Positions 22,539 through 52,719 of a stretch of 64,000 bases of DNA are shown here, piece by piece; the stretch's first letter is position 1; each line of letters starts with the position of its first letter. The translations under genes and the position numbers were made by a program. The notes under the pieces are model-generated. The model did no database searches. It saw nothing but the letters and a program-made list of their open reading frames with translations, and was not told where the DNA came from. This DNA comes from Alphaproteobacteria bacterium. Lineage in GTDB: Bacteria; Pseudomonadota; Alphaproteobacteria; Rs-D84. Location of the stretch: positions 1,612 to 65,611 of the forward strand of contig JAFZXK010000009.1 of NCBI GenBank assembly GCA_017616785.1, read 5' to 3'.

Positions 22539-23138
22539 ATGATTTATGGATATTGTCGCGTTTCAACCACGCATCAACACGAAGAAAATCAACATTTTGT
22601 CATAGAAAATTTTGCAAAGCAAAACAACATCAATATCGATTCTTGGATTGAAGAAAAAATTTCAAGTGGGCGAAAATTGCAAGACCGCAAGTTGGGCGCG
22701 CTGTTAAACGACCTTCAATCCGGCGACATATTGATTACCACAGAAATATCACGATTGGGGCGCAGTTTACTAGAGGTAATGGGAATTTTGCAAATGTGTC
22801 TTGAACGCGATTGCCAAATATGGACATTAAAAGAAAATTTTCGTTTGGGTACGGACATACAATCAAAAGTATTGGCATTTGCGTTTGGACTTTCTGCGGA
22901 ATTATCGCGTTCTTTGTTGCGCGACCGTGTGCGCGAAAGTTTGGCGCGCCTAAAAGCGGGCGGTAAAAAATTAGGACGTCCAATCGGCGCACAATCAAAG
23001 TTTTTGAAACTTAGTAAAAACAATGAACGAATAAATCTGCTAATAAGCCAGGGGATAAGTAAAAGTAAAATCGCGCGAATTATGCGCGTAAACAAAGTAA
23101 CACTTTACAATTATTTGCGAAACGCCAGTCAAATGTAA
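22539..23138 (+). CDS. small serine recombinase, Hin/Gin/Cin-type DNA invertase
   Basis: 199 aa with MIYGYCRVSTTHQ (catalytic Ser), ISRLGRS, and a C-terminal HTH (KSKIARIMRVNKVTLYNYL). Confidence 0.85.
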   Translation: MIYGYCRVSTTHQHEENQHFVIENFAKQNNINIDSWIEEKISSGRKLQDRKLGALLNDLQSGDILITTEISRLGRSLLEVMGILQMCLERDCQIWTLKENFRLGTDIQSKVLAFAFGLSAELSRSLLRDRVRESLARLKAGGKKLGRPIGAQSKFLKLSKNNERINLLISQGISKSKIARIMRVNKVTLYNYLRNASQM

Positions 23139-28632: not shown

Positions 28633-29064
28633 TTATCTCCCTTCGTCTGCTTTGTCGTACCATAACTCTCTGACAAATTGATCCAAATTACTTGTATATT
28701 CTCTTCGGACTGTCATTTCCCTCTCTTCTAACCATAGAAGTGCTTGGGTCCAATCGCCTGAATCTTGGCTATCATGTATTCCTTTCATGTGCGCCGTAAA
28801 AACCTCTATATATTTTCGTACACCGTCCGGACACTGTGGGTCAGACAAAAATTTTGACAAAAAAACGCCTACAACTCCAATATCTAGGTGATTTTTGACA
28901 GCGGCACCCCATAATTTATGTGTTTTTATTTTTGTTCTTATATAATTATTGTCTTTATCATCAAACCATACACCGAAATGAGCCGCATATCCAAATGGTG
29001 TCCCGGCATATAAATTTTTCTGTGTTCTGTCTTGAGCTAGTGTGACATTTTTTGCATTAATCAT
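28633..29064 (-). CDS. hypothetical protein wedged between queA and tgt
   Basis: 143-aa AT-rich ORF whose start overlaps the queA stop by 8 nt. Confidence 0.5.
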   Translation of the reverse strand: MINAKNVTLAQDRTQKNLYAGTPFGYAAHFGVWFDDKDNNYIRTKIKTHKLWGAAVKNHLDIGVVGVFLSKFLSDPQCPDGVRKYIEVFTAHMKGIHDSQDSGDWTQALLWLEEREMTVRREYTSNLDQFVRELWYDKADEGR

Positions 29065-30841
29065 ATGACGAATCCTTTCTAAACAATAAACAACAATCGC
29101 CGTAACTGAAAAAGCGGTATTTTTCGGCGACGGCGTGGGCGTATGCGGCTTTCATCTGCTCAAGTCCACTAAATGCCGACACCAACATAAAGAGTGTGCT
29201 TTTGGGCAAATGAAAATTCGTTAGCAGTACATCGACCGCGCGGAACTTGTAACCTGGGGTGATGAAAATATCCGTCGTTCCACAAAACGGCATGATACGT
29301 GGGGCGACACCCCGGCGGGTTTCACCCGCCACCCCTCTAGCCACCAGAGGGGAATTTTGGGCATCATCACAATACGAATTATGTTCTGTTGTAACTGTGT
29401 TGTCATATTCAGGTGCGATAAGTGAAGCGACACCCCGGCGGGTTTCACCCGCCACCCCTCTAGCCAGAGGGGAACTGAGTGTCGATGTTGCCGCCGCCAC
29501 CTCCGACAGAGGGGAATTTTTGGCATCTTCGGAATGCTTTGTTTGAAAACCAAAGCAAGTTCCCCTCTGGCTAGAGGGGTGGCACGAAGTGCCGGGGTGT
29601 CGCGATATCATATCGACAACGTTTGATACATCTTTCAAAATATCCGCGGCGGAAATATGCAATGTTGTAAGCCCCAAAGAAACCAAAAAATTTTCGCGTT
29701 TTTCGTCGTATGCACCTTTGATATCATGTGATGATTTATCGTCTATTTCAATTACCAGACCGGTTTTAGGACAGAAAAAATCAACAATATAATTACCGAT
29801 TACTGTTTGACGATTAAAATTTAATCCGTTAATTTTTTTACCGCTTATTGCACGCCACAATAACGCTTCGGGTAAACTGCCCGCTTTACGCAGGTCGCGC
29901 GCGCGTTGTTTTAGGTTTTGATTTGCTGGTAATGTTTTATAATCGACACCCCGGCGGGTTCCACCCGCCACCCCTCTGGCCAGAGGGGAACTTGCGGCGG
30001 ATTCAAGGGCGCGCAAGGATGTTGTGCCAACGGCGATTACCCGCGTGGCATTGTTGATTATGTCCGCTTGGTCGGGCGTGATACAGAACCATTCACTATG
30101 CATTTTATGTTCAGACAAATTTTCGGTCTTGACCGGCATCCAAGTTCCCGCGCCAACGTGCAAAGTTATCTTTACAATTTGTGCGCCGCGATTTTCAATT
30201 TCGTTCATCAATTCATCGGTAAAGTGCAACCCCGCCGTCGGCGCCGCCATTGACCCCAACGGATCGGCATAGACCGTTTGATAACGCGTGCTGTCGGCAA
30301 CTTCGGCTTCGCGCTTCATATACGGCGGCAGTGGCATTTTGCCCACGCGATTCAATACATCAAAAACATTATCGCAATTAAAGCACAACAACAGGCCGCT
30401 TTCGCTGTCTTTCTTTTTGACGGTTATCGTTGTTCCGTCCGTCATCGTCAATGTGTCGCCGACCTTTATTTTGTTAAATTTACGGCACAACCCCCACCAA
30501 GTTTTATCATCGACCGCGGTGTGCAATGTGATTTCGTGCGCGACACCCCGGCGGGTTTCACACGCCACCCCTCTAGCCAGAGGGGAACTTTTTATTGCGT
30601 CAAACCGCGCCGGAATAACGCGCGAATTGTTAAAGACAACAACATCACCGGGCTGCAAATAATCCAAAAAATCCCGAATATGTTTATCGGAAAGTGCGAC
30701 ACCCCGGTGGGTTTCACCCACCACCCCTCTGGCCAGAGGGGAATTTACAACCAACATGCGGGATGCGTCGCGGCGTTCCAATGGGTGCGATGCGATTAGT
30801 TCCGGCGGTAATTCAAAATCAAAATCTGATGTGTGCAGCAT
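29057..30841 (-). CDS. queA: S-adenosylmethionine:tRNA ribosyltransferase-isomerase QueA carrying in-frame palindromic-element and DUF559 insertions
   Basis: QueA blocks are present in order: FDFELPPELIASHP, FNNSRVIPAR, MPLPPY, YQTVYA, APTAGLHF, LHVGAGT, VIAVGTTS, TNFHLPKSTL, YRFFSYGD. The ORF is 594 aa, versus about 340-360 aa for typical QueA. Confidence 0.85.
   Translation of the reverse strand: MLHTSDFDFELPPELIASHPLERRDASRMLVVNSPLARGVVGETHRGVALSDKHIRDFLDYLQPGDVVVFNNSRVIPARFDAIKSSPLARGVACETRRGVAHEITLHTAVDDKTWWGLCRKFNKIKVGDTLTMTDGTTITVKKKDSESGLLLCFNCDNVFDVLNRVGKMPLPPYMKREAEVADSTRYQTVYADPLGSMAAPTAGLHFTDELMNEIENRGAQIVKITLHVGAGTWMPVKTENLSEHKMHSEWFCITPDQADIINNATRVIAVGTTSLRALESAASSPLARGVAGGTRRGVDYKTLPANQNLKQRARDLRKAGSLPEALLWRAISGKKINGLNFNRQTVIGNYIVDFFCPKTGLVIEIDDKSSHDIKGAYDEKRENFLVSLGLTTLHISAADILKDVSNVVDMISRHPGTSCHPSSQRGTCFGFQTKHSEDAKNSPLSEVAAATSTLSSPLARGVAGETRRGVASLIAPEYDNTVTTEHNSYCDDAQNSPLVARGVAGETRRGVAPRIMPFCGTTDIFITPGYKFRAVDVLLTNFHLPKSTLFMLVSAFSGLEQMKAAYAHAVAEKYRFFSYGDCCLLFRKDSSYD
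29304..29358 (+). repeat. palindromic element copy 1 (in queA)
   Basis: GCGACACCCCGGCGGGTTTCACCCGCCACCCCTCTAGCCACCAGAGGGGAATTT. Confidence 0.85.
29427..29476 (+). repeat. palindromic element copy 2
   Basis: GCGACACCCCGGCGGGTTTCACCCGCCACCCCTCTAGCCAGAGGGGAACT. Confidence 0.85.
29496..29521 (+). repeat. partial/degenerate element copy
   Basis: GCCACCTCCGACAGAGGGGAATTTTT. Only the second-hairpin half is retained. Confidence 0.6.
29558..29603 (-). repeat. palindromic element copy 3 (inverted orientation)
   Basis: AAGTTCCCCTCTGGCTAGAGGGGTGGCACGAAGTGCCGGGGTGTCGC is the reverse complement of the consensus, with a variant first hairpin. Confidence 0.85.
29943..29993 (+). repeat. palindromic element copy 4
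   Basis: TCGACACCCCGGCGGGTTCCACCCGCCACCCCTCTGGCCAGAGGGGAACTT. Confidence 0.85.
30539..30592 (+). repeat. palindromic element copy 5
   Basis: GCGCGACACCCCGGCGGGTTTCACACGCCACCCCTCTAGCCAGAGGGGAACTTT. Confidence 0.85.
30706..30746 (+). repeat. palindromic element copy 6
   Basis: GCGACACCCCGGTGGGTTTCACCCACCACCCCTCTGGCCAGAGGGGAATTT. The first hairpin carries compensatory changes. Confidence 0.85.
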
Positions 30842-31735
30842 TTATTTCTTAAACTCTAAACCTTGGTCGGTGTAGTTTTCGGCGGTATTTTCCCAATCGG
30901 GTTCAACGCGTACAAACAGGTGAAGTCGCGCATTTACGCCCCATTGATCTTGGATATCATGACGCGCCGCCGTCCCAATTTTCTTCAGTTGCGCACCGCC
31001 CCGACCGATAACAATCTTTTTATGCGCATCATTTGCAACAACAATTTTTTGATAAATATCCAAAACACCCGCGTCATCAACATCCACGCGTTCCGTTACA
31101 ACGTTTATGTGATACGGTAATTCTTGGTGAACAAATCGATAAACCTTTTCGCGCGTCAATTCCGCAAGGTATAAATTATCCGGCACATCGGTTGCGTCCG
31201 CCGCGTCAAACAAATATGGCGATTCCGGCATAACGGTTGCCATCGACGCCAGCATTTCGGCGACACCATCGTTTTTCATGGCGGAAATCATAAAGATTTC
31301 ACGAAAATCGGCCATTTCGTTTAGTTCCGCCGCGATGGGCAATAAATCGCTTTTCTTTACCGCGTCCGTTTTATTTAACGCAACAAACAGGTTTTTATGT
31401 TCACGAATTTTTTCAACTATCCCGCGTACCGTATCGGTAATTCCATGTGTTGCGTCAATAATCAGCAAAACCGCGTCCGCGTCGACAAGTGCCGTCATCG
31501 CCGCGGAAACCATTGCGCGGTCAAGCCGACGCGCCGCGCGAAAAATTCCCGGTGTATCAACGAATATCAACTGACGCGCGCCAACCATTTTTATCGCACG
31601 CAGGTTCGTTCGCGTGGTTTGAACCTTATGCGAAACGATTGATACCTTGCGCCCCATGATTTGATTCAACAGGGTGCTTTTGCCGGCATTTGTTGGCCCA
31701 ACAATGGCGATAAAACCAGAATATGTCTTGCTCAT
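30842..31735 (-). CDS. era: GTPase Era
   Basis: SGFIAIVGPTNAGKSTLLN (G1), DTPG (G3), NKTD (G4), and a C-terminal KH domain. The start at 31735 (MSKTYSGF) is preferred over 31756. Confidence 0.95.
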   Translation of the reverse strand: MSKTYSGFIAIVGPTNAGKSTLLNQIMGRKVSIVSHKVQTTRTNLRAIKMVGARQLIFVDTPGIFRAARRLDRAMVSAAMTALVDADAVLLIIDATHGITDTVRGIVEKIREHKNLFVALNKTDAVKKSDLLPIAAELNEMADFREIFMISAMKNDGVAEMLASMATVMPESPYLFDAADATDVPDNLYLAELTREKVYRFVHQELPYHINVVTERVDVDDAGVLDIYQKIVVANDAHKKIVIGRGGAQLKKIGTAARHDIQDQWGVNARLHLFVRVEPDWENTAENYTDQGLEFKK

Positions 31736-31820
31736 ACCACTAACCATAGCACACATATTTCAAAAGTGAATAAAAAAATCCCCATCTTGCGACGGGGATT
31801 CGGAGGTACACACAAACTTT

Positions 31821-37307: not shown

Positions 37308-38333
37308 CTATTGTTGTTCTTGGGGAATGTAGACATTTATTGCAGGTCCAGCGGTAAATTCACCGGTACCGATGTTAAGTTTAAATGTGTCACTAACTGT
37401 ATCATACATACCAACACTGTTTCCGGACTTTGCTGGCACACCGTTAAAGACAAGCACGTTATCTAAATAAATTTGAAATTTATAAACCTTCATTTTTGCA
37501 GGAGAGTAGTCAGCAGTATATCCAGTAAATAACATTATGTTTTTGTCTCGTCCTATATCATCTTCCATATACGTGTAGGGTGCTTCATAAACACCTTCAT
37601 CAAAAAGCAAACTAATGTTTGCATCCGATGGTGTTAGACCAGCATCAAACGTCACCACATGTCGATTTGTGTCAAAAGGGATTCTTATCTGGCTACTTGA
37701 CGAAACTGTTCCGCCCATAGAAATCCTAAATTGATTTGAATATAACCATATGGTTCCAGTTCGTCTGCCGCCCATTCCACCCCAAAGTCCAGAGACGGTG
37801 TAATCTTTCATTTTAAAATCAGCAATATATCTTACATGTTCACTTGTTCTGTATTTTATACCCGTATTAATATATTGTGTACCCGTGGATTCAATATATT
37901 CCAACTGTGTGTATCCCGCGGGCAAAATGCTATACGCACTTTGGTCGACGATGGTCCAAAGGGTGCAATCTTGATTCGCACATTCCAATTTTGTTGTGTC
38001 CGTCGTTGGTAAATTTGTAAATGTGGCGTTTAAGGCCGATGCAGTTATAAGTTTATCACCATCTGTGTTGGGGTTATAACTACTCGCATCACTATATAAC
38101 CCGCGTTCACCAATTTCACCATTACCATTCACGGTATACGTCATTACTGTTTCACCCGAACCACCGTTTGTTTGACCCGCCGCGGGTATCTTTACCTGTT
38201 TTGTTGCAACCGCTGTGTCAACATATGCCTTGGATGATGCGGTTTTAAGGTCCTCTGCCGTTGGTTCCGCAACCGCACCAAAAATCGTCATTACCGTGCC
38301 CAATATCGATGTTAGCAATACCCTTTTAAACAT
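37308..38333 (-). CDS. secreted modular protein B2 (paralog of A2)
   Basis: Same signal peptide and N-module as A2. YTQLEYIESTGTQYINTG. Divergent C-terminal domain ending GMYDTVSDTF...FTAGPAI. Confidence 0.7.
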   Translation of the reverse strand: MFKRVLLTSILGTVMTIFGAVAEPTAEDLKTASSKAYVDTAVATKQVKIPAAGQTNGGSGETVMTYTVNGNGEIGERGLYSDASSYNPNTDGDKLITASALNATFTNLPTTDTTKLECANQDCTLWTIVDQSAYSILPAGYTQLEYIESTGTQYINTGIKYRTSEHVRYIADFKMKDYTVSGLWGGMGGRRTGTIWLYSNQFRISMGGTVSSSSQIRIPFDTNRHVVTFDAGLTPSDANISLLFDEGVYEAPYTYMEDDIGRDKNIMLFTGYTADYSPAKMKVYKFQIYLDNVLVFNGVPAKSGNSVGMYDTVSDTFKLNIGTGEFTAGPAINVYIPQEQQ

Positions 38334-38368
38334 GCTACCTTTCCCCCCGTTTCCGTTACTTTGAAATC

Positions 38369-38830
38369 TTAATCATTGTTATTATTGTTACTATTATTGT
38401 TGTTACTGTTGTTATTCTCGTCACCGTATACCTGTTGATCTTGGACCGTCCATAAACTGCATGTTGGGCTGTTCGCACAGGTCAATTTTGATGTGGTCAA
38501 TGTTGGCAAACTTGATATACTTCCCTTTAATGCGGATGCCGTTACCAATTTATTCGCATCTGTGTTTGCGGTATAATCGCTTGGGTTATCGTATATTCCG
38601 CGTTCACCGATTGTCCCGTTTCCGGTTGTTGTATATGTGACGACCGCCGTCCCAAGTGTGCCGGAATTAGTGCCAGCCGCGGGTATTTTGGCCTGCCTGG
38701 TTTCAACCGATGTATCCACATACGCTTTGGACGATACGGTTTTGCGGTCTGTTGCCGTCGTTTCCGCACATGCGATTCCACACACAAACACGCATGTTAT
38801 AAATACAAATAAATTCCTAACGATTCGCAT
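38369..38830 (-). CDS. secreted short protein B1 (paralog of A1, poly-Asn tail)
   Basis: The ATG at 38830 is preceded by GGAGGA. The gene is near-identical to A1 over long DNA runs. Confidence 0.7.
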   Translation of the reverse strand: MRIVRNLFVFITCVFVCGIACAETTATDRKTVSSKAYVDTSVETRQAKIPAAGTNSGTLGTAVVTYTTTGNGTIGERGIYDNPSDYTANTDANKLVTASALKGSISSLPTLTTSKLTCANSPTCSLWTVQDQQVYGDENNNSNNNNSNNNNND

Positions 38831-38891
38831 GGTTTCCTCCCCTTTCTTCCTTTGATTTATCTGCATACAAATCCGTTGTTAAAAGTGTATC

Positions 38892-38905
38892 AAAAACCAA
38901 GGTTT
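38892..38905 (+). repeat. hix-like recombination site B-left (core AA at 38899-38900)
   Basis: GTATCAAAAACC-AA-GGTTT. Confidence 0.75.
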
Positions 38906-39005
38906 AAAATCAACCACTTTTTTCAAAAAATCAAAAAATTTTTTCATAGTAAAAACAATAGATTACAAATTTCGCACTTTTCGCCGTGGTGGTGTAAAAA
39001 AAACC
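38901..39005 (-). promoter_or_regulatory. invertible cassette B; -35 TTGATT (38908-38913, minus strand) faces operon B and pairs with fixed TGnTACACT (38884-38892)
   Basis: Minus strand reads TTGATT-18 nt-TACACT with TG at -15/-14. The RBS and B1 start lie ~55 nt downstream. Confidence 0.65.
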
Positions 39006-39016
39006 TTGGTTTTTTT
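38996..39016 (+). repeat. hix-like recombination site B-right (core TT at 39006-39007)
   Basis: AAAAAAAACC-TT-GGTTTTTTT. Confidence 0.75.
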
Positions 39017-39032
39017 ATACCACCCCTAAACA

Positions 39033-39057
39033 CAAAAAAACCGCAGATTTATGCGGT
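39033..39057 (-). terminator. rho-independent terminator after the HAD gene, insulating switch B
   Basis: Minus strand reads CCGCA-TAAATC-TGCGG followed by TTTTTTT. Confidence 0.65.
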
Positions 39058-39065
39058 ATTGACGC

Positions 39066-39097
39066 TGCTAACACTAACCACTTACACTAACACTTCC
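39066..39097 (-). repeat. TTAGTG array (R4, reverse orientation)
   Basis: Plus strand is GCTAACACTAACCACTTACACTAACACTTCC. GCTGCTAACA is also found at window positions 1-10. Confidence 0.75.
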
Positions 39098-39689
39098 TTG
39101 GCATTCCTGTTTTCGGATTTATCCATATTTGCTCATCGGCAATGTTCATCATTGGTAAATCAGATTTACTGTCCGAATATGCACGCACGACATGCGGAAT
39201 AAATTTATGCGCCACCGCCCATTCGTCCATCGCAATAACTTTGTTATTTCCCCAACAAAGGAAATCATATCTCCACGGTTTCATCGCATCCATTTTTGAA
39301 CAAATCACCGCATCAAACGGTAAATCGCGCACAAGTTTATTCACTAAATAATCCGGCGATGCAGAAATCAATAAAACTTTATTTCCGCGCGCACGTTCAT
39401 ACTCAATCCTTTCGGCGACCCAGCCAAACCGATTACGAATATGTTCACGAACAAATCTCGGAACAAATTTCTTTACCATATCGGCGGTTATAAACCGGCG
39501 TATATTTTTCCGCCACCAAAGTCCGCCACGATTAAACAACCGTGCAACAAAGCACACACCAATCAACGGCAAAAACAGCCAAGGCCGCAAACTGTGCCGA
39601 AAACAATAACGTCCAAAAGACATATTCGAATCAGGCCAAGACAGCGTTCCATCAAAATCAAACAAAACAACATTAACCGGTTTTAACAT
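39087..39689 (-). CDS. HAD-superfamily hydrolase (subfamily IB-like)
   Basis: VVLFDFDGTLS motif I; SASP motif II-like; DSKSD motif. Confidence 0.7.
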   Translation of the reverse strand: MLKPVNVVLFDFDGTLSWPDSNMSFGRYCFRHSLRPWLFLPLIGVCFVARLFNRGGLWWRKNIRRFITADMVKKFVPRFVREHIRNRFGWVAERIEYERARGNKVLLISASPDYLVNKLVRDLPFDAVICSKMDAMKPWRYDFLCWGNNKVIAMDEWAVAHKFIPHVVRAYSDSKSDLPMMNIADEQIWINPKTGMPRKC

Positions 39690-39792
39690 AATATTCCCCT
39701 ATTTGCGGCATTATATCAGCCCGAAAAATTATTTGCAAACAAATATAGAATACTGTATATTCCGATTGTCAACTTAACTAAAAGGAAAAGGA

Positions 39793-40782
39793 ATGAAAGC
39801 ATATTTAGATATTTGTAACCATATCCTAGAAACAGGAAAATGGTCCGAAAATCGCACAGGAGAAAAAGTAATCCGTGTCGCCGCAGGCGAAATATTTGTT
39901 CACGATATGGATATGGGATTTCCGTTAATAACAACAAAAAAAATGGGACTTACAAACATTGCAACAGAACTTGAATTTTTTATAAAAGGGATTACCGATA
40001 AAAGGTGGTTGCAAGACCGTGGCTGTAACATATGGAACAAATGGGCCAGTAAACCCAAATGGGAACCGGTATATAATTTAACAATCAAAGAATTTCCCGA
40101 AACCTTTGGACGTGAACCAACAGAAGGAGAAAAGAAAGAAATCGAGAACAGATGCATAGACAACGAACGTGATTTAGGACCCGTATACGGTTTTCAATGG
40201 CGGCATTTTGGTGGTGAGTATCAATTTGACACGGCGCACATAGCAAAAGACCCAACAGACAATTTTAATCATGAAAAACCAGGATTTGACCAAATCGCTG
40301 ATATTTTGCGGGTTCTTAGGTTACCAACTGATATTCGTGTTAAAGATGACAAAGCGCGCCGTATGGTCGTATCTGCTTGGAACCCATTGGAAGAATCAAA
40401 AATGGGATTACCTCCATGTCATTTTGCCTACAACTTATTACTTGATAATGACCGGTTAAACCTTACATGGACACAACGTTCATGCGATATGTTCCTTGGC
40501 GTGCCATATAACATTGCATCGTATGCGTTGTTGCTTATGCTCTATGCCAAAGAGGCCGGATTAAAACCAGGAATCCTTAAAGGTGAATTACACGATGCGC
40601 ATATTTATGAAAATCACATTCCACAAATGCGCGAACAAATTAAGCGCACGCCTTATCAATTACCAACCGTTGAAATACCTGATGAAAATTGGAAAGGTAT
40701 GCTTGCATGGAATGCGGCAAATGGATTCAAATTACAAAATTATAAACATCACGATAAATTGTATGGCGCAGTTGCGCGTTAA
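39793..40782 (+). CDS. thyA: thymidylate synthase (long form)
   Basis: NRTG, FPLITTKK, PPCH active-site Cys, QRSCDMFLGVPYNIASY. Confidence 0.95.
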   Translation: MKAYLDICNHILETGKWSENRTGEKVIRVAAGEIFVHDMDMGFPLITTKKMGLTNIATELEFFIKGITDKRWLQDRGCNIWNKWASKPKWEPVYNLTIKEFPETFGREPTEGEKKEIENRCIDNERDLGPVYGFQWRHFGGEYQFDTAHIAKDPTDNFNHEKPGFDQIADILRVLRLPTDIRVKDDKARRMVVSAWNPLEESKMGLPPCHFAYNLLLDNDRLNLTWTQRSCDMFLGVPYNIASYALLLMLYAKEAGLKPGILKGELHDAHIYENHIPQMREQIKRTPYQLPTVEIPDENWKGMLAWNAANGFKLQNYKHHDKLYGAVAR

Positions 40783-40785
40783 AAG

Positions 40786-40810
40786 ACGGGGCAAAACGCC
40801 CCGTTTTTTA
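40786..40810. terminator. bidirectional rho-independent terminator (thyA / NADAR gene)
   Basis: Hairpin ACGGGGC-AAAAC-GCCCCGT followed by TTTTTT, with an A-run upstream. Confidence 0.7.
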
Positions 40811-40820
40811 TTTGCTCTTT

Positions 40821-41279
40821 CTATTTTGAAAGTTCCGCACGAATTCGCATTAAAACTTTTCCTATACGATTTTCACCACTGCCTTCACCAAAACCACATT
40901 TATAACACACCGGACAAGATTTGATTAGAATCGCATCACCTGTGTTCTTTAACATTTCCGCCGCATCGGGATTTTGCGCAAACTTTGCACGCAAACCGCA
41001 CTCCATAATAATATATTTTCGTTGGTCAAAATTTTTCCTGCGTCCATCTCTATATTCAGGTTCCTTTGTTAAAAGTCGTGCTGCATCGGGGTCATCTTGA
41101 TTCAAAATAATACGAAAACGTGGATCCTGTACATAAAATTTCATTGCCTGGTAATAATGTTCCACCGTTGGAAAAGTAAAATTTTTACCATCCACGGACA
41201 TCTTTATTGGAAACGCCGCCAATGGACTTAAGAACCAATAGTCACCTTCGGGCTTACAAAATCTAATTTCTTTTACCAT
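40821..41279 (-). CDS. NADAR (YbiA/DUF1768) family protein
   Basis: FLSPLAAFP...FPTVEHYYQAMKF... pattern. Its start codon abuts the RND pump stop codon. Confidence 0.7.
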   Translation of the reverse strand: MVKEIRFCKPEGDYWFLSPLAAFPIKMSVDGKNFTFPTVEHYYQAMKFYVQDPRFRIILNQDDPDAARLLTKEPEYRDGRRKNFDQRKYIIMECGLRAKFAQNPDAAEMLKNTGDAILIKSCPVCYKCGFGEGSGENRIGKVLMRIRAELSK

Positions 41280-41280
41280 T

Positions 41281-44200
41281 TTACTTTTTTCCTTTTAATC
41301 TTTGGCGCAATCTTTCCATCGCAAAGAACAACGCCGGTGTTAGTGTAAATGTCCAAATAAGCGATGCCAACATACCACCAATCATAACCGCCGCCATCGC
41401 ACGCTTCATACCGTCGGCACTCCACAGTTGCGGCAACATACCCGCCATAACCGCAATAGATGTCATAAGCACCATATTCTTTTTATTATTCAGTTCTGTC
41501 CACAACGCAAGTTTTATATTTTCGCCTTTGCTAATTTTATTTATCGTTGGTTCCAACACCAAAATATTATTGTTCACAACCAAGCCAACCAACATAACAA
41601 ACGCAAGCATCGCACCAACATTTGTCGATGCACCCGATAAAAACAGCAATATAAACACGCCGGCGAAACTTGTAATAATAGATGTCGCAATGGTAAGCGG
41701 GTGAATCAAAGAATTCAAAATCGCGGCCAATAACATAAAGGTTAAAACAGTTGCCAACAAAAACGCAGTTCCGATTTCGCCCGTCGTTTCACTTTGGATT
41801 TCCGCCATACCGCCAAAAGAATATCCATAGCCCTGTTTCCAATCCATTTTATTCAGTTCAGAAACTATTTTTGATTGCACGGGTCCACTTGTTGACTTTC
41901 CAATATTGATATCGATTTCTGTAATACGACTTTTATCCAAACGGTAAATATTTGGTGTCGCTGGTTCGGTCTTTATCGTTCCAATTTGCGACAACGCAAC
42001 CATACCCTTTTGCGAATTCACAAGGACATTTTCAAACATTTTTTGATTCTTGAACGGCCGCGCAAATTCCAACACGATTGGATATTCTTCACCGTTTTCT
42101 TTGTATTTGTAAGTATCATTTCCATAAAGCGCCGTTCGCAGTGCCGCCCCAGCATACGAATTCTTTATTCCCCAAAAATCCATTTGCTCTGGGTCCGGAA
42201 TAAATCTTGTTTCATTGCCTGGCACTTGTTGTGCAAAGACCGCGGTTTGAACTTCGGGTATATTATTTATCGCATTTAATGCACGCACAGCATATTCTTG
42301 ACGCAGCGTATCATCATCACCATGTATATTCAAAACAATATCAGACGAAATTGATGATGACACGCCTTCGCCTGCACGAATTTGAATTTCCGCATCTGGG
42401 ATTTTCGAAAGTTCCGGTAAAATTTGACGCGCGATTTCTTTATCGCTGTGCCGACGCCGACCTTTATCAACCAATTTAATTTTGACCGCAATATTTTGTA
42501 ATCCGCGTTCACCAATTTTAACCGATGACGATTTTACTTCAGAAAAGTCGGATAAAACTTTTTCAATATCACGCGCAATGGATTGAGATTTTTCGTATGT
42601 CGCACCCATCGGCGCACGCGCGGTAATATTTATTTCGTTTGCATCTGTTGACGGACTAAACTCATTTCCCGTAAAGCGCATCAGCATCGCACTTGCCACC
42701 AAAGTAAGAACCGCAAACAATATCACGCGTCCCGAATGTTTATATTGATATGCAAACCACTTTTGCATGAGCGATTTTTTATTCATATTTATCGAAATAT
42801 GCCGTTCTTTGGTTATGCGCAAAATCTTTGCAATCATCATCGGCGTTAGTGTGAACGAAAACACCAACGATAGCAAAGTTAAATACACAACCGTCATACC
42901 AAACTGTGTCATAAATTTACCGGCAATTCCGCCCATAAACGCCAGCGGTAAAAACACAACAACATTTGTTCCGACACCGGCCAATACGGACACAGCAACT
43001 TTTTTTGTTCCGTCAATTGCGGCATTTTCCGCCGATTTTCCATTTCGCATTTCTTGCAACGCCGATTCTATCAAGATAATCGCATTCGACACCAATGTCC
43101 CCAGTGCCGACGAATACGCCAACAATGTCATAACATTTATCGTGAAACCACTTGCATTAACAAAGAAGAGTCCCGCAATCAACGACGCCGGAATCACGAC
43201 GCCCGCAACAATGGTTGAACGCCAATTTCGCGTGAATGCCAGCAATACCAAAATAGTAAATATAACACCGATTAAAATTCCAACTATGGTTCCCGATGTT
43301 TCGTTTGAAATGACAATCGAAGAATCAGAAATTATCTCCATCTTGGCACCAGGAAACCGCGCGTTCAGGTCGGCATTAAATTCAGGCAACTTTTTGTTCA
43401 ACGCGCGTGCAACCTTTATCGCATTACCATCGGACGCCTTTACAACCGACGCAATAACAACATCTGAACCATTAAACCGCGCACCTGTGTCAATATCACG
43501 CGCCGAATCAGTAACAGTCGCGACGTCGGAAAGTTTGAACCTTTGCCCTTCGGCGGTCGTTATATGCAAATTTTTAATTGCATCCACAGATTCAAATTCA
43601 CCGATAAAACGGACATTGGATGAATCGGCACCAACCTCTATCTTTCCACCCGGCACATTTATATTATTCGCCCCCATCGCCGACACAACATCCATAATCG
43701 TTATACCGTATGCCGCCATAGTTTCCGGATTTAGCGCAACGCGAATCGCGCGTTTTTCACCACCAAACACCGACACACTTGCGACACCATTAATTGATGT
43801 AATTTTATTGGCAAGTGTATTATCGGCATATTCTTGTAAGTCACGCAACGACGAACCATAAAGCACGATATCGACAACCGATGTCTGTAACGGATTTAAC
43901 TTTTCAATAACGGGCTGTTTCAAATCAGACGGAAATTCCGAAGCAAGTGCATCAATCTTTGATTTAACTTCGCTTGCCTTGTCATTAACATTGACGCCCA
44001 AATTAAATTCCGCCATCACATAGCCACCGTTTTCAAACGCCTGGGATGTAATTTTTTTAAGTTCCGGAACTTGGGAAATTGCGTCTTCGGCTTTCTTTAT
44101 AACCTGCGATTCAATTTCCACAGGCGCCGCCCCCGGATAAACAAAGGTCGCGGTAACCATCGGAAAATCAAGCGCCGGCGTGCGTTCCACATTCATTTTT

Positions 44201-44283
44201 GGAAACGCGACAATTCCCAACACAACCCACAGCAACACAAACATAACTGTGGTAACCGGCCTTTTTACAAAAAACTTTAACAT
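41281..44283 (-). CDS. RND efflux transporter permease (AcrB family)
   Basis: 1000 aa with a 12-TM pattern and two large periplasmic loops. The N-terminus is MLKFFVKRPVTTVMFVLL. Confidence 0.9.
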   Translation of the reverse strand: MLKFFVKRPVTTVMFVLLWVVLGIVAFPKMNVERTPALDFPMVTATFVYPGAAPVEIESQVIKKAEDAISQVPELKKITSQAFENGGYVMAEFNLGVNVNDKASEVKSKIDALASEFPSDLKQPVIEKLNPLQTSVVDIVLYGSSLRDLQEYADNTLANKITSINGVASVSVFGGEKRAIRVALNPETMAAYGITIMDVVSAMGANNINVPGGKIEVGADSSNVRFIGEFESVDAIKNLHITTAEGQRFKLSDVATVTDSARDIDTGARFNGSDVVIASVVKASDGNAIKVARALNKKLPEFNADLNARFPGAKMEIISDSSIVISNETSGTIVGILIGVIFTILVLLAFTRNWRSTIVAGVVIPASLIAGLFFVNASGFTINVMTLLAYSSALGTLVSNAIILIESALQEMRNGKSAENAAIDGTKKVAVSVLAGVGTNVVVFLPLAFMGGIAGKFMTQFGMTVVYLTLLSLVFSFTLTPMMIAKILRITKERHISINMNKKSLMQKWFAYQYKHSGRVILFAVLTLVASAMLMRFTGNEFSPSTDANEINITARAPMGATYEKSQSIARDIEKVLSDFSEVKSSSVKIGERGLQNIAVKIKLVDKGRRRHSDKEIARQILPELSKIPDAEIQIRAGEGVSSSISSDIVLNIHGDDDTLRQEYAVRALNAINNIPEVQTAVFAQQVPGNETRFIPDPEQMDFWGIKNSYAGAALRTALYGNDTYKYKENGEEYPIVLEFARPFKNQKMFENVLVNSQKGMVALSQIGTIKTEPATPNIYRLDKSRITEIDINIGKSTSGPVQSKIVSELNKMDWKQGYGYSFGGMAEIQSETTGEIGTAFLLATVLTFMLLAAILNSLIHPLTIATSIITSFAGVFILLFLSGASTNVGAMLAFVMLVGLVVNNNILVLEPTINKISKGENIKLALWTELNNKKNMVLMTSIAVMAGMLPQLWSADGMKRAMAAVMIGGMLASLIWTFTLTPALFFAMERLRQRLKGKK

Positions 44284-44298
44284 ATCCGCACCCCGCCT

Positions 44299-44901
44299 TT
44301 ATTTGCTTTGAATATTTATTTTTTGTCCGGAAACAACCTTGGACAGGACGATAATATCGCCATCTTTGATATCACCCGTAACACAAGAAAAATCTGAATC
44401 ACCCGCATTTACATTAACCGGAACGGCGGCCACAACACCCGATTCTGCACGCATAATTACACCTTCGCGCACCGCATATGTCGGAACAAAAAAACCGTTG
44501 CATTCTGCCTCGGCAAACGCAACACCATCATCAACATTTTTTGTTTTAACGATATACATACCGGTATCTAAATCTAAACTATTTGCAACATAGACAATTT
44601 CACCATCGCCAACTTTCTGTCCGACTTTTAGGCCGCGCCGATGCCCCGCCGAAACATACGCGCGATTATTTTCAACCGAAAGAGGCGTTTTTATAATACC
44701 CGTTTTCTGTTCCGCAACAATTGTTTCAACAACGATTCCTTTTTGTTCTGCATCACGCACCGGATTAAAAACATCCATACGCGATTCAATCGCAACCATA
44801 ACAAAACGATATATAAACCAAAGTATCAATACGCCTAAAACCGCCGTATAGACGTTTTTCTTTACCTTTTTATCATTAAATTTTTTGCCAAATATTTTCA
44901 T
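44299..44901 (-). CDS. short membrane-anchored periplasmic adaptor-like protein
   Basis: 200 aa with an N-terminal TM helix and beta-rich remainder. It sits in the adaptor slot between the TolC and RND genes but is about half the usual length. Confidence 0.45.
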   Translation of the reverse strand: MKIFGKKFNDKKVKKNVYTAVLGVLILWFIYRFVMVAIESRMDVFNPVRDAEQKGIVVETIVAEQKTGIIKTPLSVENNRAYVSAGHRRGLKVGQKVGDGEIVYVANSLDLDTGMYIVKTKNVDDGVAFAEAECNGFFVPTYAVREGVIMRAESGVVAAVPVNVNAGDSDFSCVTGDIKDGDIIVLSKVVSGQKINIQSK

Positions 44902-44903
44902 AT

Positions 44904-46223
44904 TTATTCACCCAATTTTTTTATCGATTCCGCCGACATTAAAATTTTATATTTTGCATTAAGAAGCGCCATATCTAATTGATAAAGTCCATTGGATACA
45001 TCCGCCAATTCCACCGCCGATGTTTGTCCGGCCGCAAATCTATCGCGTGAAAATCCATATGCCTTGGCCGCCAAATTTCGCGCATTGACAAGACCTTTTA
45101 GATTATCGCGCAAATGATTGTATTGCTTTATCGCATTTGTATATTTTTCCGAAGTAATCTTTTTAGATTTTTCAAAATCTTGACGCGCCGCTTCGGCGTT
45201 CATCACATCAACTGTGGCATTCGCCCGATTGACACCACCACTAAAAATCGGAACTTTCAACGCCAACCCCAAATATGCCGATTGCGTTGCATCACTGTTA
45301 AACATAGTTTTGAAATCTTTATCCATTGTCACATAGTTATAAGAACCGACCGCCGCAAGTGTTGGATATCCATTGGCGCGTTGTGCCGATGCCTTGGATT
45401 CATACATTTTTACTTGCTGGTCTAAAACCTGCCATTCCGGTGTATTGCCAAGTTTTTTATTTCCCATTTCCGGGAAATTTTCCGGGAATTCATCGGTCAA
45501 ATTTAACGGTTCATCAATATCAATTCCTGCCAAAATTTTTAGCATTCTGTGCGCCGTATCACGATTAAATTCGGCATCAGACAAATTGATTTCTTTTGTT
45601 GCAATATCCGATTCAATTTTAACCAAGTTGCCGCGATTCGCGCGCCCTGCCCCGGTCAGTTTCTTTTTTGCCGACACCGCGTCATTCAAATTTTTCCGTG
45701 CAATTTCGACAATTTCATCGGTCATTTTTGCGGTCCAATACAAATCCACCGCGGCATAGCGCACTTCGCGCAAAACCATTTCTTTGCTATATTCACTCAT
45801 TTTTATGGCATTCCGCACACTGTCAACCGCATTACCAATTTTTCCAAAAGTATAAATCGGCTGTGTTACCGTAACACCCGCCATAAAAATATTGTCCGGC
45901 ACATCTATATTTTCCACCCCGGCCAATTGCGGCACCAATCCACCAAGTTCCGGTGGCAACTTAACATTGAACGAATCAAATGGCTTTTCCACATTGATTA
46001 AATTCATATACGATGCCGAACCTTCGATATTAAACCACCGATTCGAATTTGCCACATCCAATGACGCCTGGGCTTTTTTTACATTGGCATCGGCCTTTTT
46101 CAAATCGTGTGATTCGGCGGTAATTTTTTGCACCGCATCATTCAAAGATAAATCCATCGCAAAACCGTCTATACGGCAAAATCCGGCGTATAGCGCAAAA
46201 AGACACCCCAAAAATTTACGCAT
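44904..46223 (-). CDS. TolC family outer membrane efflux protein
   Basis: 439 aa with a signal peptide and two tandem coiled-coil/beta repeat halves. Confidence 0.85.
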   Translation of the reverse strand: MRKFLGCLFALYAGFCRIDGFAMDLSLNDAVQKITAESHDLKKADANVKKAQASLDVANSNRWFNIEGSASYMNLINVEKPFDSFNVKLPPELGGLVPQLAGVENIDVPDNIFMAGVTVTQPIYTFGKIGNAVDSVRNAIKMSEYSKEMVLREVRYAAVDLYWTAKMTDEIVEIARKNLNDAVSAKKKLTGAGRANRGNLVKIESDIATKEINLSDAEFNRDTAHRMLKILAGIDIDEPLNLTDEFPENFPEMGNKKLGNTPEWQVLDQQVKMYESKASAQRANGYPTLAAVGSYNYVTMDKDFKTMFNSDATQSAYLGLALKVPIFSGGVNRANATVDVMNAEAARQDFEKSKKITSEKYTNAIKQYNHLRDNLKGLVNARNLAAKAYGFSRDRFAAGQTSAVELADVSNGLYQLDMALLNAKYKILMSAESIKKLGE

Positions 46224-46665
46224 TTTTATTCTCCATTTTCGAAAGAATTTCGTTCATAGTTTTAAAAGAACGAATCAATTCTTCTTCATCTTTCTTGTCA
46301 ATATCTTTGAACATTTCACAAATTGCGTTATGTAACATTTCGATAATTTGACCGGCAACCTGGGCCCCGCGTTCACTAACCGAATACCAAGTATTCCGGC
46401 GGTCATCTTCATCAACCGCCCGCACAACCAAACCATCGTGTTCCATTTTACGAAACGCCGTACATAAATTCGGCGCCGGCACAAATTCGCGCGCCGCCAA
46501 ATCTTTCAACCGCACCCGTCCCCCAAGGTACAGACGAATCAACAACTGCATCTGGGTCCGGGAATAATCGTTAAAAGACATCTGACTACGGTTTATGCGT
46601 TCAGACAACTTCGCGAACGACAATATATTTTTCCACATTAACGAAGCCAATTCTTTATGCGCCAT
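46216..46665 (-). CDS. MarR family transcriptional regulator
   Basis: Winged-HTH pattern ...TQMQLLIRLYLGGRVRLKDLAAREFVPAPNLCTAFRKMEHDGLVVR..DEDDRR. It is the first gene of the efflux operon. Confidence 0.85.
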   Translation of the reverse strand: MAHKELASLMWKNILSFAKLSERINRSQMSFNDYSRTQMQLLIRLYLGGRVRLKDLAAREFVPAPNLCTAFRKMEHDGLVVRAVDEDDRRNTWYSVSERGAQVAGQIIEMLHNAICEMFKDIDKKDEEELIRSFKTMNEILSKMENKNA

Positions 46666-46756
46666 ATTTGCCCCCTATACTTTATTAAAATCGACAATTA
46701 TTATAATTTTTAACAATTAAAAATCAAGTCCTAAAACAACAAAAATTATTTTATTA

Positions 46757-46784
46757 TTGCAAAAAGGCGAAAAACTACTATAAT
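46757..46784 (+). promoter_or_regulatory. sigma70-type promoter for tRNA-Gln
   Basis: TTGCAA-16 nt-TATAAT ends about 12 nt upstream of the tRNA 5' end. Confidence 0.55.
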
Positions 46785-46796
46785 CCACACTGTTTT

Positions 46797-46870
46797 TGGG
46801 GTGTCGTCTAATGGTAGGACAAGAGATTTTGGTTCTCTTTATCATGGTTCGAATCCGTGCGCCCCAACCA
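46797..46870 (+). tRNA. tRNA-Gln (TTG)
   Basis: TGGGGTGTCGTCTAATGG...; U1:A72; anticodon loop TTTTGGT; CCA encoded. Confidence 0.95.
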
Positions 46871-47112
46871 CATTAAACAGATTTTGAACAAGAGCAAAAA
46901 TTCTCATATTTTCCAATAGTTTCACGAGTTCGAAAGTTAAAATTCGATTTTTTGTCTTCTCAAACACACTTTCGAACTACTTATAAATCGCTAAAAACAT
47001 TCGAACCGACAACAATCTTATAAAACTAATAAAAATCTGCTCTAACAGGTCTTTTTATTCAAAATGGTTGTGGGGTGCTGGCAAAACGAAATACAATTTC
47101 ACAATACAAACA

Positions 47113-48849: not shown

Positions 48850-48967
48850 TTTTATCCTCACTTTATACGCAAACTATAACACAAAACAGCATATCTTTCA
48901 AACTCGCGTTTCGCCCACACACCACAACCACACTTCGCGTCTGCGACGCTTCGTGTGGCAGGCCTTA

Positions 48968-49870: not shown

Positions 49871-49913
49871 ACCTTTATATTATACAGATAAAACACTTTG
49901 TAAACAAAAATAT

Positions 49914-50141
49914 TTAATCGCGAATACATTTTACAAATTCTTCCAATGTTTTTCCAGTGGAATTCAATATTTTTGCGATACTGCCTGTGGACGGCCATCT
50001 TGGCTGACCATATTTCGACCAACGTTTGCTCTTGTTAAATGTTGTCGCATCCAACCCAGAAAATTTTGCCAGCCCCGAACAGGACATATTGTGTTGAAAC
50101 GCGAATTTATCGATTGCTTGCCATATATCTTGATGTGTCAT
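49914..50141 (-). CDS. small HTH (XRE/repressor N-terminal-like) protein
   Basis: IWQAIDKFAFQHNMSCSGLAKFSGLDATTFNKSKR pattern. Confidence 0.55.
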   Translation of the reverse strand: MTHQDIWQAIDKFAFQHNMSCSGLAKFSGLDATTFNKSKRWSKYGQPRWPSTGSIAKILNSTGKTLEEFVKCIRD

Positions 50142-50739: not shown

Positions 50740-50817
50740 ATAAAACTCCTTTTTTTACAAAAGAATTATATCATAAAACATGCCATTTTTCAATTTTCAT
50801 ATGAACGAAGTAAAATT

Positions 50818-52658: not shown

Positions 52659-52719
52659 TCTTTACAGAAAGTAATTATACCACAAAATTATATAAAATCC
52701 CACCTATTACCCACGATAT

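Follow-up and report, generated by a model that had tools for sequence, protein, structure and literature searches.

The queA gene (S-adenosylmethionine:tRNA ribosyltransferase-isomerase) in the 64,000-nucleotide stretch of DNA analysed here, referred to as the window, raises the question of how a nuclease domain came to lie within it, in frame and between inverted copies of a short palindromic element, which we call E. The original prediction described this module as a candidate autonomous parent of E, with MITE-like derivatives nearby. In our reading, the feature is probably a single copy of a selfish nuclease cassette that has hairpin ends and is both site-specific and in frame.

A nuclease module between hairpin elements in queA

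About 335 of the 594 residues of QueA belong to the host enzyme, and the remainder consists of insertions (Table 1). The host part matches PDB entries 1YY3, 1VKY and 1WDI, and the Pfam match to PF02547 (Queuosine_synth; E=2e-112) is split into two stretches by the nuclease module. The gene is flanked by era (30842-31756) on one side and by a 143-aa ORF followed by tgt on the other. Since an identical QueA protein is encoded in two independent ENA metagenome assemblies, the arrangement is no assembly accident.

Table 1. Coordinates of queA, the nuclease module and the copies of element E in the window.
Feature	Position	Strand	Remarks
queA (S-adenosylmethionine:tRNA ribosyltransferase-isomerase)	29057..30841	-	intact 594-aa ORF
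Solo E at site 1	30697..30743	+	in frame after QueA residue 32
Solo E	30541..30587	+	in frame after QueA residue 83; net gain 51 nt
Cassette left (N-terminal side) end, E copy	29944..29990	+	coding strand SSPLARGVAGGTRRGV; two hairpins
DUF559 module (Vsr / I-Bth0305I-like PD-(D/E)XK)	29606..29944	-	QueA residues 300-412; 339 nt; 113 codons
Cassette right (C-terminal side) end, inverted E copy	29560..29602	-	(S)RHPGTSCHPSSQRGT
Conserved junction (TCFGFQ...) and decayed E copy (~29480-29518)	29475..29559	-	in the composite at both queA sites
E copy identical to consensus	29428..29474	+	closes the composite; direct repeat of the left end
Further E copy	29305..29355	+	3-nt insertion in first loop; adjoins host QueA restart PRIMPFCGTTD

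The geometry of the original prediction held up well. The inverted copies that flank the module lie within 1-3 nt of their predicted positions, and the segment between them measures 339 nt (113 codons) and continues the QueA frame at either end, the ORF being open throughout its 594 codons. The window cassette gene has neither a start nor a stop codon of its own, and DUF559 is the sole Pfam domain in the E-bounded unit. The AF2 model of the full-length protein is poor (mean pLDDT 55); in it the module folds independently (blocks of 80-95) and residues 421-520, the element and spacer region, are predicted to be disordered. An AF2 model of the module reached a pLDDT of 90.

Profile and fold searches bore out the assignment to DUF559, which had been made from a sequence pattern. 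The module scores 88.2 bits with PF04480 (cut-off 20.6; E=4.1e-25) over profile positions 2-105 of 109. The best solved Foldseek match is 3HRL (E=2e-6; TM 0.69/0.82), which also matches at the sequence level (E=4e-13), followed by 3R3P, the catalytic domain of I-Bth0305I (E=3.5e-4; TM 0.6-0.7); weaker matches than these two are the Vsr structures 1VSR and 1CW0. The prediction was to be given up if catalytic residues were absent, and the putative residues D354, E365, D367 and H372 (D...ExD...H) are all present. Across 97 related modules, no substitution occurs at E66, R45, Q46 or W30, and 96 retain D68, as 96 retain H73. The family is large, with 15,252 clusters (50% identity) matching the module. 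A YcjD equivalent was considered and rejected: the module is related to E. coli YcjD, but its 62.7 bits against the equivalog family PRK09767 fall far under the cut-off of 218. NCBIfam, PADLOC and PHROGs held no informative family, a weak match to DpdF (E=7e-5) aside. Plasmid and phage collections contained no close relatives of the module; the distant ones (≤40% identity) sit mostly on chromids or mislabelled chromosomes, and no spreading vector was found among them.

E is a double-hairpin element of about 47 nt (47-51 nt) that occurs in six full copies and one decayed copy. On the plus strand, its consensus orientation reads CGACACCCC...AGAGGGGAA, with the core at 29944-29990. A 42-nt E pattern gives four matches in the window, compared with 0.00 expected from 100 shuffles. 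All six full copies fold into two adjacent DNA hairpins (z -2.7 to -4.7), the left-end copy with -15.6 kcal/mol (z -3.2). No Rfam family matches E or the region, even at E≤1. Two claims about these repeats stood in part. Solo copies were said to be scattered nearby: further copies do exist, but all of them lie inside queA, and a blastn-short scan found none in the remaining 62 kb of the window, where a loosely defined hairpin motif is absent as well. Inverted repeats do bracket the module, but the right copy is a variant, whose second hairpin reads GGCAC-TTC-GTGCC instead of GGCGGGT-nnn-ACCCGCC, and the identity of the two ends is confined to the CCCCTCT-loop-AGAGGGG hairpin and the CACCCC/GGGGTG blocks.

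Loci from relatives define the unit more closely. A minimal form, E(rev)-DUF559-E(fwd), directly adjoins host codons in L120, L015 and L036, and a composite form, E-DUF559-E'-spacer-E, is present in the window and in L004, L005, L007 and L094. The right end with the same GGCAC-TTC-GTGCC hairpin travels together with the module in L002, L004, L015, L036 and L120, and in alignments between queA loci homology beyond the right end runs on through CTTGYTTYGGTTTYCAAA. An intein was rejected for want of a Hint domain and because the residue following the cassette is not a nucleophile; an intron was likewise rejected, as the reading frame is continuous and no Rfam intron was found.

Occupied and empty insertion sites

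The original prediction had proposed a survey for empty and occupied sites, and among close relatives both kinds of allele exist. No insert is present in 83 of the 120 closest QueA clusters; the cassette sits at site 2, the position of the window module, in 18 and at site 1 in 13, and some queA alleles are occupied at both. Occupancy is scattered over a host-only tree, on which site 2 changed at least 14 times and site 1 at least 10 times, counts that are rough given a neighbour-joining tree of about 300 positions. Site 1 holds a full cassette in L002, L004, L005, L015, L036, L103 and L201 and is naive in L118, L120, L202 and L203, and the residue-83 site is empty in L004, L005, L007, L202 and L203. 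Naive alleles carry no E, their spacers measuring 18 aa at site 2 and 8 aa at site 1.

The closest comparison is that with L202, which shares about 95% DNA identity with the window over 3.1 kb and is naive both at site 1 and at the residue-83 site. Exactly at the position of the 690-nt array (E-cassette-E) of the window, L202 has one solo E with identical outer flanks, that of the copy at 29305..29355 included. This looks like a collapse of the solo-LTR type, or like homing into a pre-existing repeat. Identity between the two loci is mosaic around the insertion sites.

The modules do not sort by site. Host parts are 90-94% identical at the amino acid level; the window module, at site 2, is 88-90% identical to site-1 modules but only 70% identical to the site-2 module of L007. 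L005 (site 1) and L094 (site 2) share the same cassette including the spacer, with a nucleotide identity of 0.89 for the module and 0.91 for the host, and both module lineages are found at both queA sites. Possible deletion remnants at site 1 of L094 and site 2 of L005 are suggestive only. The reuse of one pair of queA sites resembles homing more than transposition.

Hairpins and nuclease across phyla

The association extends well beyond queA. We surveyed 81 related modules from many phyla, drawn from the subfamily of Pfam DUF559 nearest to the window module (motif [GD]NYIVDF[YF]). Flanking inverted repeats scored ≥14 in 50 of 74 modules, compared with 2 of 359 shifted controls (MWU p=1e-29). 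An oriented hairpin motif lies upstream of 45 and downstream of 44 of the 81 modules, in fixed and opposite orientations, against 6 upstream and 8 downstream cases in the wrong orientation and a background of 0.032 and 0.006 per 120 nt. The link between DUF559 and inverted hairpins on which the original prediction depended is thus statistically strong and orientation-specific across phyla, and its statement that DUF559 proteins often carry extensions resembling translated repeats was correct. Twenty-four of the 81 modules are embedded in frame, the host reading frame being free of stops for at least 100 codons to either side; their hosts are HsdR, type ISP/IIG enzymes, HsdS, a DNA methylase and PriA. 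For the modules in QueA and LipA-like proteins one flank is shorter than this, and they were classed as one-side fused. Insert-free HsdR homologues exist that share 95% identity with an occupied allele.

E itself consists of conserved blocks and a hypervariable hairpin, which is nearly always a perfect palindrome and for which we counted at least 38 distinct stems. Comparisons of variable stems gave double changes in four of five pairs and a one-sided change in none; the stem pairs comprise 714 Watson-Crick pairs, 10 G:T pairs and 43 other mismatches. The hairpin constraint on E acts at the DNA level. A reading as RNA structure is less likely, the variable stem showing no G:T enrichment.

These data bear on an alternative in which E is an independent REP- or MITE-like repeat moved by another enzyme, with DUF559 either a passenger captured between E copies or found there because E inserts preferentially beside existing E. 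We judge this unlikely, though it has points in its favour. Among the matches listed, solo E copies far outnumber cassettes, and many stand without DUF559 within 8 kb (L001, L003, L008 and many more); JAAVBR01 is rich in E, and no DUF559 copy was recovered from it among these matches. The two cassette ends, moreover, share just 20-25 nt or so (one hairpin and the GGGGTG block). Against it, the same oriented layout, reverse type upstream and forward type downstream, recurs in many phyla with few wrong-orientation cases, and the right end, with its own hairpin, moves between sites together with the module. The conserved blocks of E are common across phyla together with the nuclease, and no transposase was seen next to any cassette.

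Solo hairpins are best read as collapse products or landing pads of the cassette. At the sampled loci, 29% of them lie inside open frames, compared with 71% of random positions. Most thus lie outside frames, and their spread to new loci is not explained by array collapse alone.

Proposed mobility and comparison with known systems

The cassette we propose would comprise a DUF559 nuclease gene of about 340 nt and two inverted E ends of about 47-51 nt, placed in a surface-loop region of its host gene. It would be translated as part of the host protein, leaving the host gene open, and the nuclease would borrow the expression signals of that gene. The enzyme may nick or cut DNA at or beside E, or at a naive target site. 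A PD-(D/E)XK nuclease has no means of joining DNA by itself, and movement must therefore depend on the repair machinery of the host: host recombination repair would copy the cassette in, giving E-cassette-E arrays, with E copies, pre-existing solo E among them, providing landing pads or arms of homology. Where direct E copies flank an array, recombination between them could later leave a solo E behind. The protein would be made beside its own gene and its action would thus be mostly local, which we propose as the reason why all six window copies lie in queA. We infer the role of DUF559 as the enzyme driving movement, together with its cut target and the repair route, from the comparisons above.

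The nuclease could also be domesticated, or not the driver, serving the host or the repeats, for instance in hairpin or cruciform processing or in Vsr-like repair that would preserve perfect palindromes, while the cassette shifts passively by E-E recombination and horizontal transfer of host genes. The dN/dS of 0.02-0.06 is as low as that of the host gene, and persistently low values typify domesticated genes, a RAYT for example, more than homing endonucleases that cycle through gain and decay. At about 1.0-1.5, the dS that separates the window module from its relatives at site 1 is as large as that of the host gene, and many cassette copies must therefore be old and vertically inherited. The difference between array and solo E, like the relocation of the composite between E-bearing sites, needs only repeat recombination. 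Identity between the window and L202 is mosaic around the sites, and active correction could explain why the variable hairpin stays a Watson-Crick palindrome without G:T excess. Even so, we regard this reading as distinctly unlikely. The minimal cassette occurs at sites whose naive alleles hold no E, so its first arrival cannot have been recombination between resident repeats. Unrelated host genes carry the cassette at single, precise in-frame positions, with insert-free alleles of 95% identity, and the closest characterised structural relative of the module is a homing endonuclease.

An ancient, immobile fusion, in which a QueA variant carries an accessory nuclease domain, would fit the intact reading frame and the conserved module, yet it is hardly credible: the module interrupts the QueA Pfam domain, there are two insertion sites, doubly occupied alleles and scattered occupancy with 83 of 120 clusters insert-free, a distribution that contradicts the immobility in queA named by the original prediction as its own undoing, and the same cassette sits in unrelated proteins.

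The overall behaviour of the selfish cassette is reminiscent of homing endonuclease genes. The Vsr-like 'EDxHD' homing endonucleases (I-Bth0305I, PDB 3R3P) have the same nuclease fold as the module, and, like the cassette, homing endonuclease genes occupy precise sites in conserved genes, are patchy among near-identical alleles and leave the host product readable. Fixed sites with occupied and empty alleles in close relatives were found in both queA and HsdR. However, known homing endonuclease genes reside in self-splicing introns or inteins or are free-standing, whereas the cassette is none of these and is translated inside the host protein. It is also, unlike them, bounded by hairpin repeats that exist as solo copies.

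In this last respect it resembles REP/RAYT systems. Both have a usually single-copy gene between inverted, short, GC-rich hairpin repeats, with many dispersed solo copies; in both, hairpin structure rather than sequence is conserved and the gene is under strong, housekeeping-like purifying selection. The cassette differs in encoding a PD-(D/E)XK nuclease rather than an HUH/Y1 (IS200-like) transposase, in lacking a GTAG/CGTC tag and in having its gene, with part of the repeats, set in frame into the genes of its host.

Repeats inside genes have precedents. Rickettsia palindromic elements (RPE) were reportedly described by Ogata et al. in 2000 as 'selfish DNA in protein-coding genes'. Like E, they are palindromic repeats lying in frame in alphaproteobacterial protein-coding genes and tolerated as extra peptide. 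Whereas RPE measure 100-150 bp, are known only from Rickettsia and are not known to have an associated enzyme, E is about 50 nt long, forms two hairpins, is spread over many phyla and goes together with a nuclease gene; its size of 47-51 nt argues against membership in RPE-1 to RPE-8. Double-hairpin elements of fungal mitochondria are said to have been described by Paquin et al. in 2000. Such elements and the fungal mitochondrial GC clusters are short, GC-rich mobile repeats (PMC4478555). Both they and E are found sometimes in genes and sometimes beside free-standing endonuclease ORFs fused in frame to a neighbour, but the fungal elements are organellar and their endonucleases are of the LAGLIDADG or GIY-YIG type. 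To our knowledge, a conserved 'hairpin-nuclease-hairpin' unit has not been reported from these fungal elements.

The MITE analogy of the original prediction is not supported in the form given. Measured against an autonomous transposon, the coding unit does have terminal inverted repeats, albeit imperfect ones. No target-site duplication was found at any junction examined, a few host codons being replaced instead, and none of the known transposase classes (DDE, HUH, Tyr, Ser or Cas1) is encoded by the cassette. MITEs, as non-autonomous copies, keep both ends of their parent, whereas a solo E corresponds to one cassette end and not to paired terminal inverted repeats. A paper on Thiomargarita MITEs concerns elements other than E.

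We further propose, tentatively and with slightly less than even confidence, that this DUF559 subfamily and its double-hairpin ends form a widespread, unrecognised class of mobile element. Free of introns and inteins, it would invade genes in frame, become an internal domain of its host (QueA, HsdR, HsdS, type ISP/IIG enzymes, DNA methylases, PriA or LipA) and seed solo hairpins; its Vsr-like enzyme would act on DNA hairpins, and many DUF559 'domain architectures' would be insertions rather than fusions. If so, such action on hairpins might account for a variable stem that drifts in sequence and yet keeps its perfect palindrome. Full-text literature searches found no description of such a cassette, no published link of DUF559 to repeats and, in agreement with the original prediction, no paper assigning the family a role in mobility.

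If this holds, DUF559, a very large family whose function is unknown, would gain a biological role. A recurrent annotation oddity in bacteria would also be explained, namely the short GC-rich 'translated palindrome' peptides that occur at the termini of DUF559 proteins and within enzymes unrelated to them. Beside introns and inteins, the cassette would represent a third way for a selfish nuclease gene to reside in an essential or useful gene without destroying it. We know of no mobilising enzyme for bacterial hairpin repeats other than REP/RAYT, and DUF559 would be a candidate for one family of them. Restriction-modification genes are often the hosts, which raises the question of whether cassettes alter or sabotage host defence. 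Among the matches listed, the carriers include cultured bacteria, namely Pedobacter, Pseudanabaena, Nitrosomonas, Weeksella and Cryomorpha, which makes the idea directly testable.

A DUF559 module and a double-hairpin element within queA

The queA frame of the window is intact, and Pfam divides Queuosine_synth (E=2e-112) of the encoded protein into two stretches with DUF559 (PF04480, E=4.1e-25) between them at residues 309-413. Both the DUF559 assignment and the in-frame fusion to QueA on either side, as made in the original prediction, therefore hold. A PDB sequence search matched the 594-aa protein to three QueA structures and to the DUF559 protein 3HRL. The identical protein is encoded on two independent assemblies, which excludes an assembly artefact and, together with the inverted pair of a double-hairpin element (E, ~47-51 nt) enclosing 113 codons, confirms what had first been observed. 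The pair is present, but the second hairpin of its right-hand copy differs. The solo copies had been described as scattered nearby, whereas every one lies within queA itself; no copy occurs in the 64-kb window beyond this gene, even with a loosely defined hairpin motif.

Coordinates of the features discussed, in the window
Feature	Position	Strand or orientation	Detail
Serine recombinase	22539-23138	+	199 aa
143-aa ORF	28633-29064	minus	between queA and tgt
queA	29057-30841	minus	594 aa, intact (ORF scan)
E copy	29305-29355	+
E copy	29428-29474	+
Decayed E copy	about 29480-29518
E copy	29560-29602	inverted	right-hand copy of the pair
DUF559 module	29606-29944		113 codons, enclosed by 29944-29990 / 29560-29602
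E copy	29944-29990	+	one half of the inverted pair
E copy	30541-30587	+
E copy	30697-30743	+
era	30842-31756		one neighbour of queA; on the other side the 143-aa ORF, then tgt
Negative GC skew	38001-58000		strong from about 42 to 58 kb
Low GC	46001-52000

The consensus of E (~47 nt) is CGACACCCCGGCGGGTTTCACCCGCCACCCCTCTAGCCAGAGGGGAA, and folding predicted two adjacent DNA hairpins for each copy in the window. The 352 distinct copies collected from the loci L001-L203 have in common TTCCCCTC-loop-GAGGGG-TG-variable hairpin-GGGGTG. This second hairpin is hypervariable in length as well as sequence, with at least 38 different stems that are nearly always perfect palindromes. In a fixed-length subset, double-sided changes were seen in 4/5 pairs of the variable stem and one-sided changes in none, and the covariation score was matched by 0/500 shuffles. 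The stem shows no wobble preference (714 Watson-Crick pairs, 10 G:T and 43 other mismatches in 152 sequences), which favours a constraint at the DNA rather than the RNA level and suggests that E is a DNA-structure element. A stem that drifts yet stays perfect might be explained by a Vsr-like mismatch nuclease that works on hairpins once they are extruded. At the sampled loci, 29% of solo hairpins lie inside reading frames versus 71% of random positions, and some are placed in frame close to the N-terminus of another protein.

E66 is invariant in 97 modules, D68 and H73 are each kept in 96/97, and R45, Q46 and W30 are likewise invariant; none of these residues belonged to the search pattern. 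The putative catalytic residues of the proposed nuclease are thus conserved on alignment, their counterparts in the window being D354, E365, D367 and H372. In close pairs, dN/dS of the module is 0.02-0.06, as low as the 0.03-0.08 of host QueA, at similar dS. The AF2 model of the module (pLDDT 90) is nearest to 3HRL and next to homing endonuclease I-Bth0305I (catalytic domain), followed by the R2 retrotransposon endonuclease and Vsr. Judging from residues, dN/dS and model, the DUF559 nuclease looks functional. To our knowledge, no activity has been described for any DUF559 protein. In work on Caulobacter VsrA, a candidate role in mismatch repair was considered for a DUF559 protein.

In PADLOC, the module weakly matches DpdF (E=7e-5), a protein of a 7-deazaguanine DNA-modification system. 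We mention this because queA also belongs to the queuosine/7-deazaguanine pathway; the match probably reflects the shared nuclease domain only.

Cassette polymorphism at two queA sites

Among the matches listed, exact and degenerate E patterns identified loci mainly in Candidatus Enterousia and related uncultured gut and rumen alphaproteobacteria, the degenerate pattern also matching a few other phyla. The aligned queA alleles share a composite unit, E(rev)-DUF559-E(fwd)-TCFGFQ spacer-E(rev), in which rev and fwd denote the orientation of E and the spacer is a decayed E. This unit occupies site 1, behind QueA residue 32, in the loci L002, L004, L005, L103 and L201, and site 2, behind residue ~283, in the window, L007, L084 and L094. 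L015:6046-7998 and L036:6158-7999 carry one module at each site, the two being of different lineages. In L120, L015 (site 2) and L036 (site 1), a minimal E(rev)-DUF559-E(fwd) directly adjoins host codons; the originally proposed unit, with the inverted pair as its limits, is therefore a real entity. The database proteins P0203 and P0204 have three DUF559 stretches apiece.

The host parts of QueA share 90-94% amino-acid identity. The window module, at site 2, is 88-90% identical to site-1 modules versus only 70% to the same-site module of L007, and a second module lineage (…DFDRQKI…ASKF…) is likewise found at both sites. L005 (site 1) and L094 (site 2), the closest hosts with a nucleotide identity of 0.91, have the same cassette including the spacer (identity 0.89) despite the different sites.

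Searching with a host-only QueA sequence, we found both empty and occupied sites among close relatives, a polymorphism that the original prediction had singled out. Among the 120 closest clusters (76-94% identity), 83 are insertion-free, the site-1 spacer measuring 8 aa in them and the site-2 spacer 18 aa; the cassette is at site 2 in 18 and at site 1 in 13, and about nine have solo-sized insertions. A rough neighbour-joining tree built from host-only columns disperses the occupied alleles and requires no fewer than 14 changes at site 2 and 10 at site 1. This scattered occupancy excludes a single ancient insertion or an ancient, immobile fusion.

The ENA contig L202 has ~95% DNA identity to the window across 3.1 kb. 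In its queA, site 1 and residue 83 are both naive, and site 2 holds one solo E whose flanks are exactly those of the 690-nt E…E array in the window. Thus, either the array collapsed between direct E repeats, much as solo LTRs arise, or a cassette inserted into a resident E. Nucleotide identity between window queA and L202:3001-4047 varies along the gene: upstream of site 1 it is 95/95, from there to residue 83 it falls to 86%, it returns to 95% until site 2 is reached and is 92% beyond. Though the numbers are small, this mosaic hints at tracts of recombination or co-conversion linked to the insertion sites. At the cassette/E junctions, a few host codons are replaced. No target-site duplication was found at any examined junction. 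Solo copies correspond to a single cassette end and two-ended MITEs are lacking, which does not support the MITE-like derivatives first envisaged.

The 143-aa ORF overlaps the queA stop by 8 nt and has no match in Pfam or NCBIfam. Small ORFs take the same position in L009, L202 (152 aa) and L203 (142 aa). Window and L202 give no blastn alignment at this ORF, though the flanks are 86-95% identical, and the queA-tgt interval looks like a variable gene slot.

Flanking hairpins and host genes across phyla

An exhaustive search with the module yielded 15,252 clusters (50% identity) at E<=1e-3 and 2,201 at E<=1e-10; of the best 150, about 43 reach 300 aa or more, and in most of these the match is internal. 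Many homologues are free-standing proteins of 120-195 aa, whose extra N- or C-terminal residues are translated GC-rich hairpins (for example TTSPCGDSSTGGEL, FPSGGGVARMRRGG, PPRQALPATPPEEGN, SPPLEGCPKGGVV), in agreement with the original prediction, in which DUF559 proteins often bear such extensions. A subfamily profile scan of one genome per species confirmed at least 586 loci, of which the best 80, containing 81 modules, were analysed and span many phyla. The inverted repeat between the 150-nt flanks scores at least 14 in 50/74 modules versus 2/359 shifted controls (p=1e-29). Upstream, 45/81 modules have the motif TCCCCTC…GAGGGGTG no more than 120 nt away, and downstream 44/81 have its complement-orientation form, CACCCCTC…GAGGGGAA, over the same distance, against background rates of 0.032 and 0.006 per 120 nt; the wrong orientation occurs at only 6 (upstream) and 8 (downstream) of 81. 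The suspected association of DUF559 genes with inverted hairpins is thus general in this sample, statistically strong and orientation-specific. NSPPLEGW…, FPSxGGV… and SPLARGV… represent one DNA family translated in different frames.

For 24/81 modules, a long surrounding frame stays open over at least 100 codons in both directions, and these count as embedded; 16 more are fused on one side, and a Pfam domain is frequently split. Scanned hosts of embedded modules are PriA, type I HsdR, type ISP and Eco57I-like enzymes, HsdS and N6/N4 methylase, while LipA-like radical-SAM and QueA cases are either embedded, as in one queA allele, or fused at a single side. Most HsdR homologues of 84-95% identity lack an insert (1066-1079 aa), and a minority have DUF559 at one same linker. 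In P0175, an HsdR of 1257 aa from the same family, a divergent DUF559 occupies another position.

The DUF559 of P0175 is flanked by different repeat-like peptides, PSLNLSQRERS and SFSHSERDVRRTEGD, so other DUF559 subfamilies may have hairpin ends of their own. GIY-YIG (PF01541) also resides in frame in this HsdR family, at a different fixed point after 'RFMAW' (L135:1501-5907; P0097, P0100, P0101, P0144, P0162, P0166, P0172, P0194), and insert-free alleles are ~92-95% identical to its bearers; in-frame residence may thus be more widespread among small nuclease genes. In the HsdR of L135, GIY-YIG occurs together with a DUF559 cassette and numerous solo hairpin peptides.

Proposed mode of spread and relation to known systems

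Our data show that hairpin, nuclease and inverted hairpin form a conserved unit that comes and goes at exact in-frame points of several host genes and that selection, as its sequence conservation indicates, keeps functional. A homing-like mechanism would be the most economical. The nuclease would break DNA at E or at a naive site and the cassette would be copied in through repair, with resident E copies supplying homology; direct E repeats would collapse afterwards to solo copies, and local action of the protein made at its own gene could pile up E in queA. A nuclease by itself cannot join DNA. E may be moved by another enzyme, or the nuclease may be domesticated and the cassette shuffled by recombination alone.

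A homing cassette of this kind would resemble Vsr-like homing endonucleases in fold and site specificity; unlike homing endonucleases, it comes without intron or intein. In REP/RAYT systems, too, inverted hairpin repeats flank a gene and occur dispersed as well, but the cassette has no HUH transposase. In-frame repeats are shared with Rickettsia palindromic elements, and traits of mitochondrial GC clusters are combined in the cassette, which lacks defining features of each of these four systems. The literature searched held no description of a hairpin-bounded DUF559 cassette. It is probably a selfish nuclease gene, with a substantial chance of being a class of its own.

Elsewhere in the window, the serine recombinase (Resolvase family, by a Pfam match on the matching contig) adjoins a glycosyltransferase and several unannotated ORFs, and its surroundings may be a small mobile or variable region. 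GC content is 0.33-0.36 at 46-52 kb versus 0.40-0.48 elsewhere in the window, and the strongly negative GC skew measures -0.2 to -0.3.
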